Below, one piece after another: positions 18,520-26,433 of a stretch of DNA of 64,000 bases; the stretch's first letter is position 1; every line of letters starts with the position of its first letter. The position numbers were made by a program, and so were the translations under genes. The stretch covers positions 1,376,001 through 1,440,000 of the forward strand of contig CBDFJR010000005.1 of the NCBI GenBank assembly GCA_965248535.1, written 5' to 3'. Source of the DNA: Phormidesmis sp. (lineage in GTDB: Bacteria > Cyanobacteriota > Cyanobacteriia > Leptolyngbyales > Leptolyngbyaceae). A model generated the notes under the pieces. It was not told where the DNA came from. It saw only the letters and a program-made list of their open reading frames with translations, and did not search any database.

Positions 18520-20034
18520 TTAAGACTCCTCAGAATCGAATTTTTCAGGTTTTAGCAATGGGAAGGCGATCACGTCACGAATGCTAGCGGCATCAGTCAG
18601 CACCATGACTAAGCGATCGATGCCGATTCCCAGTCCTCCGGTTGGCGGCATTCCATATTCCAACGCGGTGAGAAAGTCTTCGTCAACGCCTTGGGCTTCG
18701 AGATCGCCAGCGGCTTTGCGATCGGCTTGGGCCTCTAGTCGCGATCGCTGATCTACAGGATCAGTTAACTCTGAGAAACTATTGGCGGTTTCTCGCCCGA
18801 CGATGAATAACTCAAATCGTTCGACTAGCCCAGGCTTTGAGCGATGCGGTTTTGCGAGGGGTGAAATCTCGATCGGATAATCTAAAACAAACGTCGGCTG
18901 GATTAGTGTATCTTCAACTTTTTGTTCAAACGCTTCGTTGAGCAGGTTCCCGATCGAGACACATTTCTCAATGTTGTAGATTCCAGCCGCTTTTGCCGCA
19001 ACTTTTGCCTCGTCTAACGTTTGGAACTGCGTGAAATCAAGTCCGGTTTTTTCTTGCACAATCTCGTGCATCGTGACTCTGCGCCACGGAGGAGTCAGAT
19101 CAATATCTTCGCCCTGGTAGCTAATCTTTAAAGTTTCTAGAACTTCTTGGGCGACGGTCGTAATAATCGCTTCGGTCAGCGCCATCATGTCGTGATAGTC
19201 GGCGTAGGCTTGATAAACCTCGATCGACGTAAATTCTGGATTGTGCCGGGTCGAAACGCCTTCGTTTCTAAAGATGCGTCCCAGTTCAAACACTTTCTCA
19301 AACCCACCCACGATCAGGCGCTTGAGGTGCAACTCGGTGGCGATGCGGAGATATAGCTCCATATCCATCGTGTTGTGATAGGTGACAAACGGACGCGCAT
19401 CGGCTCCGCCTGCTTCTGACAAGAGAACGGGCGTTTCGATTTCGATAAAGCCTTGCTGATCTAAATAGCGCCGAATTCCCGCTGTGATCAGGGCGCGACG
19501 ACGAAAGGTTTGCCGCACTTCAGGATTCACAATCAAATCCACATAGCGTTGACGATAGCGTTTAGCGACATCGGTCAAGCCGTGCCATTTGTCGGGCAGC
19601 GGCAGCAGCGATTTGGTCAACATCGTGTATTGGTTGACGTAGACCGAGAGTTCGCCTTTTTCGGTGCGCTTGACGCTGCCGCTTGCGCCGATGATGTCAC
19701 CTGCATCAGTGAGTTGCTTGAGATGGTCAAAGGCTTGCGGGTCTGCCTCGCCCATGTTGGCTTGAATGCGCGTTTTGTCGAGATAAAGCTGAATGGTGCC
19801 CGTCTCGTCTTGCAGCGTGAAAAATGCCAGCTTGCCGAAGACGCGCCGCGCCATGATTCTGCCCGCGATCGCCACTTCGATCGCGACTTCTTCACCGTTG
19901 GCTAAGTCGGCATATTTTTCTTGCAGTTCGGCGGCGTGGTGGGTTGACTGCCACTGATAGGCGTAGGGGTTTACGCCCAGTTGCTTGAGTTGCTCAACTT
20001 TTTCGAGGCGAGTAGCGCGAAGATCGTCTGACAT
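18520..20034 (-). CDS. lysS: Lysine--tRNA ligase (class II)
   Basis: [46 protein letters not shown]. Confidence 0.98.
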
Positions 20035-20250
20035 GGCTTAAAATTCCTGGATACGCAGCCAAGAAGCAGGATGCAACTGAGGCTAATAGCAGCTTTCTAT
20101 TATAAGGGCGAAGGCTACGGGAACGTGGAGTAAACCTTTTGCGTTTATGGGGCGATCGCATCAAAAATTGAGTACAGCAGTCAAGGCACATGAAATGCTG
20201 AGGGAACACCTCCGGTGCAGGAAACCTATGCGCTGACAGCCATACTGAAG

Positions 20251-20395
20251 CAAATATGCGAAAAGATTCCGCCTATCCATCCAAATGAGCGTAATACGCA
20301 GAAAGATTCTGTCTATCTACCTCATTCGGGGTGCTACGCAGAAACCATCTGCCTATTCACCCATTTCGGCGTGATATGCGGAAACTTTCTCTCTA
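20251..20395. repeat. Degenerate tandem array with 40-bp period (~3.5 units), each unit internally palindromic
   Basis: Units at 20251, 20291, 20331, 20371 align without gaps, e.g. gtaatacgcagaaagattctgtctatctac / gtgctacgcagaaaccatctgcctattcac. Confidence 0.8.
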
Positions 20396-20556
20396 AAAAG
20401 AAGTTATGCTGCTTCGTTTACAGGCGATGGTAACTAGTGGTCTGTTAGCGTTTAAGCTCTAGACAGAGATCAATGAAGTGGTTAAACCCTAGAGCTTCTA
20501 CGGATGTTGTATTTTTCATCGTATTCCAAGATTGAATGAGTCAGTTTTGAAATACG

Positions 20557-20946
20557 ATGAAAAAGCTTCTCACTCTTACTCTATTGACTGCTGCTAGTTG
20601 TTTTTTTGTAGGTAAAGCTATGGCAGAAACGCCATTACTTATTTACGGGGCTCCGCCAAGAGGACAAGGAACAATCTTTTTGGGTTGTATCAACTGCAAT
20701 CGTTCACATCCAAGCTCTTTGGCAAACAGCATCGGTGACTATGGAAGTCGAATTTCTGACTTAAGTATTTACAATCGCATCGGTGATTATGGAAGTCGAA
20801 TTTCTGATGTCAGTGCTTGTAATTCTTACGCAAGTAGTCCACCCATCGTAGTAAACGGTGATGGCGATGTTGTTGGTTATCTTACTGTAAATAGACGTAC
20901 GAATGGTGTAATTTTAGATCCCCGCATCATTGGTGCTTGTCAATAA
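20557..20946 (+). CDS. Secreted hypothetical protein with duplicated IGDYGSRISD motif
   Basis: Signal peptide (..AMA|E), FLGCINC, 16-aa/48-nt internal repeat, ACN..A..PP. Confidence 0.75.
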   Translation: MKKLLTLTLLTAASCFFVGKAMAETPLLIYGAPPRGQGTIFLGCINCNRSHPSSLANSIGDYGSRISDLSIYNRIGDYGSRISDVSACNSYASSPPIVVNGDGDVVGYLTVNRRTNGVILDPRIIGACQ

Positions 20947-21173
20947 TTAAACTAACTTTTGATACTGCAAGTGGTTATTTTGAATAGGTTTGATTTTTCA
21001 AGATAGTTCCTTGATACAGGACAATAGGCTGTTGCAAAACCGATAAGCAAGCCAGTATGCTCGCCACTCTTCTAGATTATCTTGAATTTCGCGAAACCCA
21101 ACACAAGCTCTGAAGCCAACGATCGCCTCACCCAGCTAAAATAAAAGGGTCAAGTCGCAACGAGATCAAGCCT

Positions 21174-21446
21174 ATGACAGTTCGACAACCCCGCTACAGC
21201 AAAGAAGAATTTGCTCGACGTGGCGATGAGATTTATGAATCTCAGGTTCGCTCTCAAGTTGAAGAAGGCAACCATGGCAAAATTGTGGCAATTGATCTCG
21301 AAACCGGAGCTTTTGAAGTTGATGCCCGTGAAATTGCTGCTTGCGATCGCCTCGAAGCCCGTCACCCAGACGCTCAAATCTGGATTGTCCGCATTGGTTC
21401 CCGCCATGTTCGTCGATTTGGCGGACGCACAAAGAGAGCCGTATGA
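21174..21446 (+). CDS. Small conserved hypothetical protein (partner of clan AA aspartic protease)
   Basis: MTVRQPRYSKEEFARRGDEIYE...GKIVAID.ETG.FEV...RIG; ATGA overlap with the next gene. Confidence 0.75.
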   Translation: MTVRQPRYSKEEFARRGDEIYESQVRSQVEEGNHGKIVAIDLETGAFEVDAREIAACDRLEARHPDAQIWIVRIGSRHVRRFGGRTKRAV

Positions 21447-21820
21447 TCATCGGGATCGTCAACGCGGATTTTGAGCCGATTATTCCACTTTCAGTCTGTG
21501 GCTCCGATGGAACGGTTTGCGCACAAGACGCGATCGTGGACACAGGCTTTAATGGTTGGCTTTCACTGTCTCCAGATTTGATCGCTCAGTTAAATCTGAC
21601 CTAGAAAAGGCGAGGACGAGCCATTCTGGGCGATGGGAGCGAATGCGTTTTTGATGTTTATGAGGCAGTTTTAGTTTGGGATGGGAATCTTTTGACAATT
21701 CCAGTCGATGAGGCTGATTCAGAACCCCTTGTCGGGATGTCGCTGATGGAGGGATATGAGCTAATGGTGCAAGTATTTGAGAGCGGTCGTGTCGAACTCA
21801 ACAAAGTAACCGCGATTTAA
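21443..21820 (+). pseudogene. Clan AA aspartic protease (AF_0612-like) with in-frame TAG at codon 54
   Basis: MIIGIVN...AIVDTGFNGWLSL...NLT*KRRGRAILGDGSE...PLVGMSLMEGY; TAG at 21602-21604; frame continues to TAA 21820. Confidence 0.85.
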
Positions 21821-21953
21821 CAAGTCATTGCACGTCGATCGTATCGAGTTATCTAGTTAAGTCTTGGATGTAATCGCTCTATTTCCATTCTTGATCGAAG
21901 TCGTTTAGTGTTCACCTTTATTTTTTGTGTACAAATGTGCATACAATTGAAGC

Positions 21954-22220
21954 ATGGTGTATCAATGGGACAACTACAAAGCAGCGGCTAATCTTCGCAA
22001 ACATGGGATTGATTTTGCCGATGCTGTGCTTGTTTTCTCAGATGACCTTGCCATTACAGTGACAGACGATCGCTTTGACGAAAGGCGATTTATCACGATC
22101 GGAACCGATGCCTTGAGCCGAGTGCTTGTGGTTGTCTACACCTACCGAGAAACTGCGATTCGACTGATCTCGGCTCGGTCTGCAACTCGCCAAGAACGCA
22201 GACAATACGAAGAGGGCTAA
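21954..22220 (+). CDS. brnT: BrnT family toxin
   Basis: YQWDNYKAAANLRKHGIDFADA...ERRFITIG...IRLISARSAT..ER.QYE. Confidence 0.92.
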   Translation: MVYQWDNYKAAANLRKHGIDFADAVLVFSDDLAITVTDDRFDERRFITIGTDALSRVLVVVYTYRETAIRLISARSATRQERRQYEEG

Positions 22221-22486
22221 TGATGGAACCAGAATACGACTTTAGCAAGGGGCAACGAGGAGCGATCGACCCATCGGGCGCTGGAAAAACCCGCATCACG
22301 ATTCGGATCGATGATGCAGTATTAGCTTGGTTTAAAGAACAAGTTCATTTGGCAAATGGCGGCAACTACCAGACCTTGATTAATGAGGTTCTCAAAGCCC
22401 ACATTCAACAGCAGCACGAGCCTCTAGAAGACACACTGCGACGAGTGTTGCGAGAAGAACTAGACCGCATTGAAAAACAGGTATGA
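22220..22486 (+). CDS. brnA: BrnA family antitoxin
   Basis: EYDFSKG.RG...KTRITIRIDDAVLAWFK...YQTLINEVL. Confidence 0.9.
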   Translation: MMEPEYDFSKGQRGAIDPSGAGKTRITIRIDDAVLAWFKEQVHLANGGNYQTLINEVLKAHIQQQHEPLEDTLRRVLREELDRIEKQV

Positions 22487-22633
22487 GCGTGAGTGCGTCA
22501 GACCTAAGAGTCAAAGTTAAGGTTTAGATGCGATCGCTCCCTATCCCCTTCCCGATCGCTTTGCATCTAGATTGATGGAGTTGGGAAACCGCCTGAATGG
22601 AGACTATCAGAGTCATCACGGCTCCCCAACATC

Positions 22634-23005
22634 CTATAGTTGAATCGTGGTTTTGCTGGGCACCTCCTCTACTTGTATTAGGGAACCACTACCCAGAACA
22701 ATGTTGAACTTCACAAGTGATCGTTCTACTTGATATCCGGGCAACACTCGCACAATCTGATACTCTGTGGTCAGATCACTGGTGCCATCCCACTTCAGCA
22801 ATGCTAGTTGATTAGATGAGATTTCACTCAGTTGGGAGACAAACTCTTCAATGCTGTCGCTAACATCCGAAACAATGCCAGACGACACAAAGAGATAACG
22901 CTCTTGCAAATCCAAAGTCACACTGACTCGATAACGCTTTTCCACCGAGCAACGCAACTCAATGGTGAACGAAATCGAGCTAGGAACGATCGTCCTAACT
23001 GCCAT
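22634..23005 (-). CDS. Orphan hypothetical protein (123 aa)
   Basis: ORF preceded by AAGAGGAC RBS-like sequence; no family recognised. Confidence 0.5.
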   Translation of the reverse strand: MAVRTIVPSSISFTIELRCSVEKRYRVSVTLDLQERYLFVSSGIVSDVSDSIEEFVSQLSEISSNQLALLKWDGTSDLTTEYQIVRVLPGYQVERSLVKFNIVLGSGSLIQVEEVPSKTTIQL

Positions 23006-23022
23006 AGTTTCTGTCCTCTTAG

Positions 23023-23142
23023 TTAAGTTAAAGAGGACAAAAACACGGATCTCTCAGATATTGGGTTGGGGTGAAATCTGTATGCAGGATCTTGATTCCA
23101 GCCTTTCAAGATCCCATAGCAAAGCTGACGGTGTACAATCAT
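23023..23142 (-). CDS. Putative 39-aa upstream ORF (MIVHRQLCYGILKGWNQDPAYRFHPNPISERSVFLSSLT)
   Basis: Perfect AGGAGG 5 nt before the ATG; stop codon lies in the loop of the hairpin covering the next RBS; below the ORF-track cutoff. Confidence 0.5.
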   Translation of the reverse strand: MIVHRQLCYGILKGWNQDPAYRFHPNPISERSVFLSSLT

Positions 23143-23343
23143 GAACGCCTCCTGAGTTATTTGCGGTAACTAGGGATGGAAGTCCTCGGAGTCTGATTTG
23201 GCCGATCAGATTTCCGGGGCACAACTCCATCACTGCGGTGTATTGTACTAGAGTTTTTTGTTTTTTGGAATGCTGAATTTTTTGGAGAGCGATCAAGCCG
23301 CTCGCGCAAATAGAAATCTATAGGCGATGGGCAACTTTTTCTT

Positions 23344-23427
23344 AGCCCCCTCAAAAAGGGGGTTTGGGGGATCGCATCGTCGGAGGCACGATCCAGAGAT
23401 CCCTAAATCCCCCTTTTTAAGGGGACT
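23344..23427. repeat. Cyanobacterial small dispersed repeat pair (CCCCCT-AAAAAGGGGG type), inverted
   Basis: agccccctcaaaaagggggtttgggggatc ... gatccctaaatccccctttttaaggggact. Confidence 0.7.
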
Positions 23428-23461
23428 TTGATCTGTCCTACTGTACTGGCGAAATGCGCGA

Positions 23462-23719
23462 TCAAGATCCCTTTTGGTTTTGCGATCGGAACCGTCCCGA
23501 TAGAAAGTCTCGCTTTTTGAGGTGTTTAGTCCCTCGCCCAGTGACTCGCTCACGCCACATCCGAAAACTGGAGGGTTTCATCTCGCGACGCATCAGCGCG
23601 ATCGTTTGTGACTCAGTTAAGCCAAACTGAAGCTCGATCGCTTCAAAGGTCGTCCGGTCTTCCCACGCCATTTCGAGAATGCGATCGAGGGTTTCGCTCT
23701 CTAATTCTGGTAAATCCAT
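23462..23719 (-). CDS. TIGR03643/DUF2805 family protein
   Basis: RILEMAWEDRTTFEAI..QFGL.E...MR..MKPSSFRMWRERV.GR.TKH. Confidence 0.9.
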   Translation of the reverse strand: MDLPELESETLDRILEMAWEDRTTFEAIELQFGLTESQTIALMRREMKPSSFRMWRERVTGRGTKHLKKRDFLSGRFRSQNQKGS

Positions 23720-23744
23720 CAGATCAAAAAGATAAATCGCTGGA

Positions 23745-24350
23745 CTAGTTTACAGGAATAAGTTTGCGGACTTCTGCGATCGGGTTGACCGACTCAACTT
23801 CTGGAAAATGCTTATCTACTAAATCAGGAATTTCGCTGGCACCAATTTTGCAATAGCGCGTTTTACCCGGCATCACGACATTAGGGCCTTTGCCGCAGTT
23901 TTTCATGCAGCCTGTGCCTTTGATGGTGACGTGATCATCTAGCCCACGATCGCTGAGTGCTGTCTCTAGGGCTTGACAAATGGCTTTGCCGCCGCGCTTC
24001 ATGCAGCCCGATTTTTGACAGACGAGGATCGTTTCTGACGATTTTTTAACCGCAGGCTTGGGCTGGGCAATTGGGGCAGTGGGAACGATTGGTTCGATAA
24101 AGTCAGCTTTAAATCGGGTGGTGTGAGTGTCTCGATCGAGCTTCTTTCTACCAGACACGCGCACCCAATCACCCGCAACCAAGCCATGACTTAAGCCAAT
24201 TCGCGCTTCTTTGGTGAGCTTAATTGAGCATTCACCCTCGGCGGTGGCAAGCTGAAATCGCTTAATTTTATGACCCGCTTCGGTCTGATATCCCAAAAAG
24301 CGCCCTTCTAAGCTGAACGGGGTCACTTGGCTCGTCTTAGATTTTCCCAT
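23745..24350 (-). CDS. Thioredoxin-like (2Fe-2S) ferredoxin domain protein
   Basis: ILVCQKSGCMKRGG...TGCMKNCGKGPN with an N-terminal OB-like segment. Confidence 0.88.
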   Translation of the reverse strand: MGKSKTSQVTPFSLEGRFLGYQTEAGHKIKRFQLATAEGECSIKLTKEARIGLSHGLVAGDWVRVSGRKKLDRDTHTTRFKADFIEPIVPTAPIAQPKPAVKKSSETILVCQKSGCMKRGGKAICQALETALSDRGLDDHVTIKGTGCMKNCGKGPNVVMPGKTRYCKIGASEIPDLVDKHFPEVESVNPIAEVRKLIPVN

Positions 24351-24413
24351 TGTCAAACTCCGATGTGATCAAATTGCTAGACGACGTGTTTTTTAGAAGA
24401 CTGAACCCTGTGC

Positions 24414-24492
24414 ATTATTGCAAGTAATATTCAATAATGCGGCTATCTTAACCTTACAACAAACTTTTTTATTTGCAAACTATTCTCATTAA
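24414..24492. promoter_or_regulatory. Two Fur-type (iron) boxes upstream of the 2Fe-2S gene
   Basis: ATTATTGcaagtaatattCAATAAT palindrome (24414-24438) and tttgcaaactattctcattaa (24472-24492). Confidence 0.6.
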
Positions 24493-24584
24493 GAATATAG
24501 GCATTGAGGGCAAAGATCATCCGCCATCAAGAGTATCTAGGGTTGTCGTGCGATAGTGAGTTGGCAGCAATCTTTGAAGGAACT

Positions 24585-25367
24585 ATGTCTGCAACTACTC
24601 CGATCGTGCTCGCGCTAGATTTTGATGGCGTTATTTGTGATGGACTGAGAGAATACTTTCAAACCGCATGGCAGGCCTATTGTCAGATTTGGCAGCCTGA
24701 TGATGAGACTCCGAACCCAGCGCTAGCGCCTCAGTTTTATCGGTTGCGCCCTGTGGTTGAGACGGGTTGGGAGATGCCAATTCTGATTAGGGCGCTGGTC
24801 TTAGGCATCGAAGAAAGCAAGATTTTGCAGGATTGGGCCCCGATCGCCGCTCAAATTATCGCTGATGACGAGTTAAATGCTACTAACATCAGCGCGATCG
24901 TGGATGGCCTTCGCGATCAGTGGATTGCAGCAGATTTAGAGGGCTGGTTAGCCGAACACCGCTTCTATCCGGGGGTAATTGAGCGACTGCGCGGAGTCTT
25001 AGCGAGTTCAACGGATTGCGTGATCATCAGTACCAAAGAAGGTCGCTTTATTAAACAACTGTTGCAACAGCAAGGGGTGAGTTTATCCGATCACCAAGTT
25101 TATGGCAAAGAAGTCAAACGTCCGAAATATCAAATTCTTAAAGAGCTAACGCTTGAGTATGGGGAGACGACTCCGATTTGGTTTATTGAGGATCGGTTGA
25201 AGACTTTAGAATCGGTTAAGAATCAGCCGGGATTGGAGAATGTGACCTTGTTTTTGGCCGACTGGGGCTATAACACGATCGGCGATCGCGACTCGATTCT
25301 AGACGACGATCACCTTCACCTTTTATCTTTAAAACAATTCACGCAAGAGTTTGCGGTGTGGATCTGA
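24585..25367 (+). CDS. HAD family hydrolase
   Basis: LDFDGVICD, STKE, FIEDRLKTL, LADWGYN. Confidence 0.9.
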   Translation: MSATTPIVLALDFDGVICDGLREYFQTAWQAYCQIWQPDDETPNPALAPQFYRLRPVVETGWEMPILIRALVLGIEESKILQDWAPIAAQIIADDELNATNISAIVDGLRDQWIAADLEGWLAEHRFYPGVIERLRGVLASSTDCVIISTKEGRFIKQLLQQQGVSLSDHQVYGKEVKRPKYQILKELTLEYGETTPIWFIEDRLKTLESVKNQPGLENVTLFLADWGYNTIGDRDSILDDDHLHLLSLKQFTQEFAVWI

Positions 25368-25397
25368 GACCCTAAACGATCCGCAAACACTCGTGCT

Positions 25398-25973
25398 CTA
25401 ATCAGTTTGAGCCAGTTTTGCAGAATAAATGTGCCAAGTGCGATCGTCGGCTGAGGTTCCATCAACAAGCGATCGACGTAAGACATAAGTTCCTTTAAAG
25501 TGCTGCACTGTCTGGTTTTTAGTTGTTGCGGTTAGCATCACCGGAACCCTGACATATTGCGACCCTGCCGCGCCTTCTATTTGACTCGGTTCGCTAATGT
25601 TGACTTGAGTAGAGGTCGTTTCTGCAAAGCCGTTTTTAAACGCCTCAAAGGTCTGATGGCTGGCCGAGCCGTTGTCTTGCCAGGCGCGATAGGCTTGAGC
25701 ATAGTCTCGGCGATCGAGGGCATCATAATATCCCTGAATGACCGCAACCGCGTTGTCAGACTCAGAACGGGTGTCTTGAGCGACAGCCTTTAACGGGGAA
25801 ACGGTCACCGCAGAAGGCTGTGCAGGAGTGGGAGTTAAAGAGGGAGTCGGCGCGGTAGTGGCTTGCAGACTAGGTGCAGGGCTGCTCTGAAGGTCTGGAT
25901 TTTGAGCCGAACTACAGCCTGACACCCAGCCAAGCGCTAACACGCTGATCGTTAGAAAATGAGAGGTTTTCAT
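25398..25973 (-). CDS. Hypothetical lipoprotein
   Basis: Lipobox VSGC, P/T linker, YYDALDRRDYAQAY..W, EGAAGSQY. Confidence 0.8.
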   Translation of the reverse strand: MKTSHFLTISVLALGWVSGCSSAQNPDLQSSPAPSLQATTAPTPSLTPTPAQPSAVTVSPLKAVAQDTRSESDNAVAVIQGYYDALDRRDYAQAYRAWQDNGSASHQTFEAFKNGFAETTSTQVNISEPSQIEGAAGSQYVRVPVMLTATTKNQTVQHFKGTYVLRRSLVDGTSADDRTWHIYSAKLAQTD

Positions 25974-26433
25974 AGAGATTTTTATCGATAAAGCTGCGGT
26001 GTCGATTGAGCGGATTTTCGTAGAGCCTAAAGCCAGTGCTTAGGTCTATTCTATCGGACTGGATACACGCTGAAACCTGCCAGTTTCGCACTAGTGAATA
26101 GGATTGATAAAGTCTCTCTCTACAGAAGCACTATCACTACATCTTTAGAAAGAGAACACTCAGGTTCTAATTGATTAAATAGCTCGATAACGGTTAAGGT
26201 TACAAATTTGGAAACATAAAAAATCTTCGATTCGATAAAAACTATAATCCTAAATCCCAATCAGTAATTTGCTGAATGAATCAATCTTTGGATGTGGGCG
26301 ATCGTGGTTTTATCAGTGGTTTTATCAAAGGCTTTTAATCAGTCATGCCATCGCTTTAGCAAATTATCGATTGCTAAAAGTTTGATTACCCAATTCAAAC
26401 CGCTATGCTGTTAGAGAGACACTACACAACCTC

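Follow-up and report, generated by a model that had tools for sequence, protein, structure and literature searches.

We examined a compact gene unit on the minus strand of a 64,000-nucleotide (nt) stretch of the Phormidesmis sp. genome (NCBI GenBank assembly GCA_965248535.1, contig CBDFJR010000005.1, positions 1,376,001 to 1,440,000; the window, whose numbering is used unless another locus is named), and on balance we read it as belonging to a repeated gene unit, about 0.7 kb long and restricted to the genus, that serves as an RNA-gated companion gene of integron platforms. From upstream to downstream, the unit comprises its own promoter, a structured leader of about 230 nt, an upstream open reading frame (uORF) of 39 codons, an open reading frame (ORF) of 123 amino acids (aa; ORF123) and a 3′ hairpin. 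An earlier reading made from the letters of the window (the sequence-only reading) had proposed a compact, self-contained and possibly mobile module built around an orphan gene. The module was borne out as a repeated unit, and of the suggested mobility the repetition stands, with movement itself graded as probable. The link to integrons lies outside the window, so the sequence-only reading missed it.

Consistent with a repeated unit, a BLAST search of the region against its own genome (5.03 Mb in five contigs) returned 17 dispersed matches with 86–91% identity, the homology running from about position 23294 to just beyond the stop codon or into the 3′ hairpin. The search across cyanobacteria that the sequence-only reading had called for found the unit in all eight genomes of the genus (4–21 matches each), and in none of 33 sampled genomes of other genera. 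Across the order, 9 of 90 genomes contained it, namely the eight of the genus (with 4–22 matches in each of the seven besides the window's genome) and only 1 of the 82 others, which has a single copy. For alignment, we combined the 17 copies of the window's genome with 28 copies sampled from seven other genomes, giving 45 copies from eight genomes; the −10 box, the uORF, the hairpin over the ribosome-binding site (RBS) and ORF123 recur in both sets. The label ‘orphan’ therefore fails, as the protein has 410 database relatives (E ≤ 1e-3) and belongs to a unit repeated across the genus. The 17 copies of the window's genome form one clade against the 28 copies of other genomes, which points to multiplication or homogenization within the lineage.

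The usual description of an integron comprises three parts: an integrase, an attI site and a promoter. We found that the ORF directly upstream of one copy in the window's genome (c06) encodes an integron integrase (intI), matching TIGR02249 with 466 bits against a cut-off of 265. TIGR02249 matched at 12 places in seven of the eight genomes of the genus, 8 of them above the cut-off. At eight of the nine intI loci with an intact C terminus, the intI stop codon precedes, on the same strand, the promoter of the unit, whose −10 box stands some 50–110 nt downstream of that codon; these loci come from genomes G000, G001, G002 (two loci), G003, G004 (two loci) and G006. A degraded intI in G006 also adjoins pieces of the unit. 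On the far side of intI lies a conserved block ending in CTCAATC directly followed by GTTATGCCGC, together with 37-nt tandem repeats and canonical attC sites. In the window's genome, these repeats are seen between the attI-like block and the start of intI (L026:4700-4860, contig C2) as tandem palindrome units of about 37 nt of the TATACGGAAA.TTTCCGTATA type, and in copies c03 (locus L023) and c10 (L030) they run straight into the unit. These two copies look like platforms that lost intI, judging from this fusion.

Eight of the 17 copies carry, in place of intI, a 330-bp repeat (UR) with a sharp start after TAAC. On the array strand, all eight outer junctions of UR read AAATAGTA followed by GTTA, or a near variant of this. 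A solo UR end and the attI of c06 are joined to the same downstream sequence, with 28 nt identical from GTTATGCC and homology beyond, whereas their upstream sides are unrelated (17 of 60 positions). Sites of integron type also cluster near the units. Among 14 exact GTTATGCCGC core sites in the genome, eight lie within 4.5 kb of a unit, two at a second intI and one at the solo UR; among 14 attC-like sites matching on both strands, eight fall in the 10-kb zones upstream of units, which together make up 3.4% of the genome. The upstream neighbours of the UR copies are mostly small, co-oriented genes that read away from the unit. The UR end is thus a candidate attI, a role suggested by its sequence junctions, all eight of which start with GTTA on the array strand. 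Taken over the family, the unit is thus a constant companion of integron platforms with and without the integrase. The association itself was observed directly; from it we infer a functional link. Separately, the UR of copy c14 (L034:3795-3992) contains three sigma-70-like matches directed outwards to the cassette side, a count that is not above that of shuffled sequences. One of these has a perfect TATAAT, its sequence is kept in the eight UR copies, and it could be a promoter resembling the Pc of integrons.

The copy in the window is a solo, upstream-truncated member of this family. Its start, at about 23294, falls within the linker a short way upstream of the promoter, and it is convergent with a BrnT/BrnA pair. 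The sequence-only reading had drawn attention to this adjacency, which proved not to be a feature of the family: the neighbours of the other 16 copies are mixed and include housekeeping genes, insertion sequence (IS) elements and toxin–antitoxin (TA) genes. The site of the window copy, beside a DUF2805 ortholog, is empty in all four related genomes that retain the flank. The site at the NAD synthase gene is filled in four other genomes and is thus common to five; G006 has intI and the unit there, and the window's genome has UR and the unit. Whereas the eight long copies share the sharp UR start, the other nine of the 17 begin at staggered points in the linker. Right junctions resume 0–45 nt past the hairpin. 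For 31 of 32 loci in other genomes, the left and right flanks do not map together in the window's genome, so that no clean target-site duplication could be discerned.

Other elements have left traces near some copies. At c07, an IS with a DDE_Tnp_1/DUF772 transposase (L027:1828-2853) lies between UR and the unit and has removed the first 48 nt or so of the promoter region; an ORF for a reverse transcriptase/maturase lies nearby (L027:24-998). About 2 kb upstream of c16, we found RNA domains of a group II intron (L036:396-980; Rfam RF02001, RF01998 and RF00029). The junction of c16 with the ALAD gene (L036:3560-3900) is 95% identical to its counterpart in G002 (L088), against 76–86% for other shared flanks; four genomes lack the unit at this site, and the high identity may reflect recent exchange. 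Partial copies also occur. In G001 and G003, full copies are followed, 0.15–0.6 kb downstream, by solo 3′ fragments consisting of the last 28–45 codons and the hairpin (G003:C123:2542-2686, G001:C12:66435-66579, G003:C18:1263-1388 and others), and many of these fragments share one start point. A lone copy of the ORF (G105:C451:3366-3734) is present in another genus of the same family, in an assembly that is 85% complete, and could reflect transfer or mis-binning. Another part of the window, positions 21100-21400, which holds a 90-aa ORF (21174-21446) and the start of an overlapping 87-aa ORF, also recurs many times across the genus; when the segment 21100-22560 was searched as read on the minus strand, dozens of matches fell on query positions 1160-1460.

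Having placed the unit beside integron platforms, we turn to its own parts, all on the minus strand. The promoter region (23236-23294), delimited by BLAST against the window's genome and by the 17-copy alignment, consists of an A-rich tract, TTCCAAAAAACAAAAAACTCT, and the −10 box TACAAT (23247-23242), which is present as the sequence-only reading had described it and which appears as TACAAT or TAGAAT in the copies. A consensus promoter scan gave no sigma-70-like site at this promoter, so the call rests on conservation and position. The 5′ leader that follows (23006-23235) is nearly invariant in the 45 copies. Its segments have a nucleotide diversity (pi) of 0.014–0.09, compared with 0.28–0.39 at fourfold-degenerate sites of the ORF, and are thus 6–20 times less variable than these sites, indicating that constraint on the leader exceeds that on the protein. 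Rfam returned no match at E ≤ 1 in window positions 20000-26000, and on three other unit loci it returned only group II intron domains outside the unit. When folded, as the sequence-only reading had suggested, the whole 663-nt RNA was more stable than its shuffles (z-score of −5.2), and the isolated leader gave a z-score of −3.2.

The variation that the leader does contain is concentrated in three hairpin loops, one of them that of the RBS hairpin, and in the central part of the uORF. The inner 5′ hairpin (23193-23209) pairs CTGAT with ATCAG around a variable 7-nt loop (23204-23198), whose pi of about 0.45 is neutral-like. The small hairpin AGTTA/TAACT (23155-23171), directly upstream of the Shine–Dalgarno (SD) sequence of the uORF, likewise has a variable loop. 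Diversity in the loops of these two hairpins, about 0.45, is 1.2–1.6 times that of the fourfold-degenerate sites (0.28–0.39); we considered diversifying selection on the loops and found it unnecessary, given how near these values lie. The sequence-only reading had placed a single long hairpin at the 5′ end, and this held in part. All five pairs of its inner stem are unchanged in 45 of 45 copies, but the outer stem failed, as a G-to-A change at alignment column 10 breaks a G–C pair in 16 of the 45 copies and three further pairs are broken in 4–23 copies, leaving 94% of cells (pairs by copies) paired. By contrast, an alternative helix, in which the first 20 nt or so pair with the region of the uORF SD and AUG, is paired in 630 of 630 cells across all 45 copies. 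Its four variable positions each change one side only and stay paired, and the G-to-A change at column 10 turns a G–U pair into an A–U pair. Because pairing is kept despite variation in the helix of the 5′ end with the uORF start, and not in the long 5′ hairpin, we read the leader as a putative two-step gate.

The second step of this gate would be the uORF. An AGGAGG SD (23153-23148) and a 39-codon uORF (23142-23023) are present in the window copy and recur in the others; together they span 23023-23153 and contain an invariant hairpin, GGGATCTTGA/TCAAGATCC (23115-23106 and 23095-23087). The uORF has 39 codons in 17 of 17 copies of the window's genome and in 41 of 45 overall. The four deviants have 38 codons (an in-frame 3-nt deletion), 40 codons (one codon more), 37 and 12 codons, the latter two being one frameshift and one nonsense change. 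There is no third-position excess of variation in the uORF, and its first 21 residues are conserved together with their encoding nucleotides; what is preserved is an open frame that terminates in a hairpin loop. This hairpin (23012-23039) sequesters the RBS of ORF123 in its predicted fold. It is the perfect 9-bp hairpin TGTCCTCTT/AAGAGGACA (23039-23031 and 23020-23012) noticed at the outset, with the uORF stop codon TAA (23025-23023) in its loop and an SD-like AAGAGGA in its 3′ arm. Ten predicted pairs are retained in 42–45 of the 45 copies, and the uORF ends within the loop region in 43 of 45. The uORF and RBS-hairpin architecture proposed for the window is therefore conserved across the family, and it suggests that the uORF is translationally coupled to ORF123. 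According to this model, the RBS of the main ORF would be locked in a stable hairpin of 9–10 bp, ribosomes translating the uORF would terminate in the loop and thereby open the hairpin, and the first 20 nt or so of the mRNA could pair with the start region of the uORF and so shut it. The leader may thus act as a nested two-step gate, with closure of the uORF start by the 5′ end and opening of the main RBS by the uORF.

The unit ends at a 3′ hairpin, GTTGGGGAGCCG/CGGTTTCCCAAC (22580-22630; arms 22630-22619 and 22591-22580), which is present at the place given by the sequence-only reading and marks the right end of the repeated unit. Across the family, its consensus is GTTAGGGAG...CTCCCTAAC. Folding the 78 nt past the stop codon in the 45 copies with RNAfold, we read the hairpin in about 29 of 44 usable copies. 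It typically begins 8–14 nt past the stop, has variable loops of 15–50 nt and is not followed by a U tract. Variants of the two arms pair with each other, for example GGGAGCCG/CGGCTCCC versus GGGAACCG/CGGTTCCC. Three copies, c03 (L023), c07 (L027) and c10 (L030), have insertions of 80–95 nt in the loop of this hairpin; those of c07 and c10 are alike, suggesting a small loop-targeting element.

The sequence-only reading had further proposed that the two ends of the transcript pair as a panhandle, silencing the message in the manner of hok. The window copy does contain CAACTCCATCA (22573-22583), an exact 11-nt complement of 23232-23222, and this 3′ partner is copy-specific, lying mostly in the flank of this copy. 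When the first 30 nt of each of the other 43 copies were compared with its 100 nt past the stop codon, perfect complementarity extended over 4–8 nt at most, so that none reaches 9 nt, and most of the duplex energies fall within the range of shuffled sequences. The 11-nt match is therefore probably due to chance in this copy only; it cannot be the control principle of the family, and silencing by a hok-like 5′–3′ fold-back is not supported.

The product of the unit is a 123-aa protein, present in the window at 22634-23005. Its ORF is intact (123–124 aa) in 16 of the 17 copies, with one copy frameshifted. Over the 120 pairs of the 16 intact copies, the nonsynonymous and synonymous substitution rates (dN and dS) were 0.055 and 0.445, a dN/dS ratio of 0.12 that reflects purifying selection and shows that the protein is real and constrained. 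The guanine–cytosine (GC) content of its coding sequence is 44%, against 50% for the genome. Names among the 410 relatives are limited to ‘hypothetical protein’ of Phormidesmis. Clustering at 50% identity left 13 representatives only, including metagenome proteins that are 45–50% identical; the match of another representative, a repetitive protein of 2642 aa, we regarded as compositional. Scans of genome and metagenome contigs confirmed no locus for the 45–50% identical relatives (P0123, P0124 and P0134).

The protein is acidic (isoelectric point (pI) of 4.8; grand average of hydropathy (GRAVY) of 0.16), is not hydrophobic and has no membrane segment. AlphaFold2, given a 25-row alignment, modelled it with a mean predicted local distance difference test (pLDDT) of 88.3 and a predicted template modelling score (pTM) of 0.81, as a soluble beta/alpha fold in which a sheet of three strands is combined with a helix of 30 residues and a long beta hairpin. 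These properties uphold the early remark that it is not a typical hydrophobic type I toxin. No match for ORF123 was found in Pfam, NCBIfam, PADLOC or PHROGs. The structural search with Foldseek gave no related fold, with no hit at E ≤ 1e-3 in PDB and BFVD; an all-against-representatives search (VIA) gave a best Z of 4.6, under the tool's noise guide, the ESM Atlas gave nothing usable, and a sequence profile against PDB gave a best E of 0.05. Searches of plasmids, phages and IMG/VR with the protein gave no match, and family and fold searches with the uORF peptide gave nothing usable. A predicted complex of ORF123 with the uORF peptide scored 0.02 against a mark of 0.32, which is informative neither way. 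As the model is confident and has no structural neighbour, the protein is a candidate for a new fold and function.

Several observations weigh against reading the unit as a gated companion of integron platforms. The second intI of the window's genome (C2:161487-162425, L103), which scores above the cut-off and has the same upstream attI block, has no unit downstream and is the exception among the nine loci. In the 12 kb upstream of the window copy, we found neither intI nor UR nor an attC-like site, so the integron link is a property of the family. The unit stands past the 3′ end of intI, or past UR, on the side opposite the cassette array. Its 3′ hairpin, with GTT and AAC at the outer stem ends, is the mirror image of a canonical attC and is devoid of the inner GCGG/CCGC boxes that the genome's own attC sites contain. 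For these three reasons, the mirror-image hairpin, the missing boxes and the position outside arrays, we did not file the unit as a standard cassette. Our attC and attI calls come from custom regular expressions and folds and not from IntegronFinder; the attC patterns were derived from the genome's own sites, since a strict RYYYAAC/GTTRRRY pattern (at least five complementary positions) missed real ones. For the gate, the covariation check showed no compensatory double change in any of 58 predicted leader pairs across the 45 copies, because the stems hardly vary, and the leader structures thus rest on conservation and energy. Contig sets from two RNA libraries (ice and mat) contain family fragments over 22692-23282, which carry no strand or ends and are not proof of transcription. 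Finally, nothing points to toxicity of the product, and 16 of 17 ORFs are intact.

We considered whether the unit might instead be a locus like the type I TA systems hok/mok/sok of plasmid R1 and AapA/IsoA of Helicobacter, in which ORF123 would be a toxin that folding of the mRNA and coupling to the uORF keep silent, the antitoxin being an unseen cis-antisense RNA. In those systems the toxin is a small hydrophobic peptide, usually under 60 aa. Like them, the units are compact, self-contained, multicopy loci that would use a leader or overlapping ORF for downstream translation, a sequestered RBS and, as we suppose here, a 5′ end that closes translation start, with the uORF coupling and RBS sequestration conserved. 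With its many copies, the unit would match the repeated type I loci that are known from enterobacterial chromosomes. An opposite-strand TACAAT, whose use is hypothetical, stands at the uORF start facing the sense −10 box; both variable patches are hairpin loops, the usual starting places of antisense recognition; and TA genes lie within 3 kb of 6 of the 17 copies. Other observations speak against this reading. Unlike hok/mok/sok and AapA/IsoA, the unit has no 5′–3′ fold-back as a family trait, encodes a 123-aa soluble acidic protein without a membrane segment and is linked to integrons. The diversity of the loops is close to that of fourfold-degenerate sites and calls for no diversifying selection. 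On the antisense strand, a long stem would pair the two −10 boxes, yet the common change from TACAAT to TAGAAT breaks it and is uncompensated at the uORF start. The RNA contigs are unstranded, and PADLOC found no match. For cyanobacteria, msoT1/msoA1 of Microcystis aeruginosa has been described as the first candidate type I system, with such systems so far found only in three other phyla according to that report (Ruparcic and Dolinar 2025, PMC12390103). Our unit resembles it by description, as a candidate RNA-controlled toxin locus in a cyanobacterium, but its protein is much larger. Taken together, we regard a type I TA locus as unlikely.

The association with integrons could also mean that the unit itself is a cassette, with an unusual recombination site and its own promoter, scattered by IntI at secondary (attG-type) sites. 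The integron core site has the motif GTTRRRY, and an attC begins with RYYYAAC and ends with GTTRRRY. The right end of the unit, CTCCCTAAC, reads GTTAGGG on the other strand and the UR flanks read GTTA, both like a core site; the unit is 0.7–1.0 kb long, with a terminal hairpin and a variable loop; and insertion of cassettes by IntI at places other than att sites has been reported (Loot et al., bioRxiv 10.1101/2022.09.11.507474). These parallels are offset by the hairpin, which as noted mirrors attC without the inner boxes, by the position of the unit, which is never inside a co-oriented array but at the array origin beyond intI or UR, and by the last 130 nt of UR, in which we found no R″-type partner for its end. 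In chromosomal integrons, TA cassettes carry their own promoters and stabilize the sedentary integron. The unit is similar to them in having its own promoter, in being small and multicopy in integron-rich regions and in a plausible stabilizing role. Those cassettes are two-gene pairs of known families that stand in arrays with canonical attC sites, whereas the unit has one protein without a family match, lies outside the array and ends in a non-canonical hairpin. A cassette is therefore quite improbable in our judgement, and we rate just as low an ordinary, non-mobile paralogous family, for example of a stress- or cold-response protein of a polar cyanobacterium, whose leader would be a regulatory RNA (a thermosensor or leader-peptide sensor) and whose proximity to integrons would reflect shared variable regions. 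Strong purifying selection on protein and leader, the conserved first 21 residues of the uORF, the fragments in ice and mat RNA libraries and the NAD synthase site shared by five genomes would all suit such a family. It would not account for the sharp common right end at the 3′ hairpin, for the sharp UR start of the eight long copies (the other nine being staggered), for copy sites that differ between species or for the low GC content; the single clade of the window's genome implies lineage-specific multiplication or homogenization, and adjacency to the intI stop codon in eight of nine loci, across a gap of 20–110 nt, is too precise for mere co-residence. Least probable is a non-autonomous element moved by an HUH/TnpA transposase of the IS200/IS605 type, inserting 3′ of TAAC and carrying subterminal hairpins. 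TAAC does flank all eight UR copies on the left and ends the unit, a small hairpin lies 12–30 nt inside UR in addition to that at the right end, and a tnpA–tnpB pair sits beside copy c12. That IS, however, is single-copy and has no similarity to the ends of the unit, the nine staggered starts leave no defined left end, and the TAAC junctions are explained by GTTA crossovers of integron type, which the shared junction sequence directly supports.

Our preferred reading, a gated companion gene of integron platforms, has precedents in part. Integron platforms with intI, attI and Pc, and integrase-less arrays (CALIN, attC-site clusters that have no integron integrase), have been described (Cury et al. 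2016, PMC4889954). Here, similarly, the unit adjoins intI in eight of nine loci, a GTTA core seems to connect the UR end to cassettes in the manner of attI, and canonical attC sites and co-oriented small genes follow. To our knowledge, known platforms have not been described as having, immediately past the intI stop codon, a conserved gene with its own promoter and uORF gating, nor as including many integrase-less attI-like platforms per genome that each carry such a gene. A general search of the integron literature, which was not aimed at such a gene, found nothing like a conserved gene behind intI. A passage of a 2026 screen of cyanobacterial RNA structures in Nucleic Acids Research (PMC12873609) mentions the species only in its genome list.

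If the preferred reading is correct, the unit would be a tightly gated accessory gene of the integron platform. The role of its protein may be that of an addiction or stabilizing factor, or that of a recombination or regulatory helper, and the data do not choose between them. The unit may have multiplied together with integrase-less platforms through site-specific recombination at GTTA-type ends, with the outer end of UR acting like an attI crossover site that leads into co-oriented small genes with canonical attC sites. One possible extension, which we advance tentatively and think doubtful at present, is a distributed integron system: at least eight integrase-less platforms in this genome, each with a 330-bp attI-like site that gathers cassettes and with the same RNA-gated companion gene, would depend in trans on one or two IntI genes, themselves bearing this companion at the 3′ end, and the companion protein would be a novel integron accessory factor with a new fold that controls recombination or acts as an addiction function, the leader tying its synthesis to translation status. 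The leader would offer a clean natural example of nested translational gating, and its conservation in 45 copies makes it suited to reporter genetics. If true, a conserved gene behind intI that is repeated at integrase-less attI-like sites would add a component to the picture of the integron, and would give access to the question of how the integron platforms of chromosomes spread and are maintained outside the Proteobacteria.

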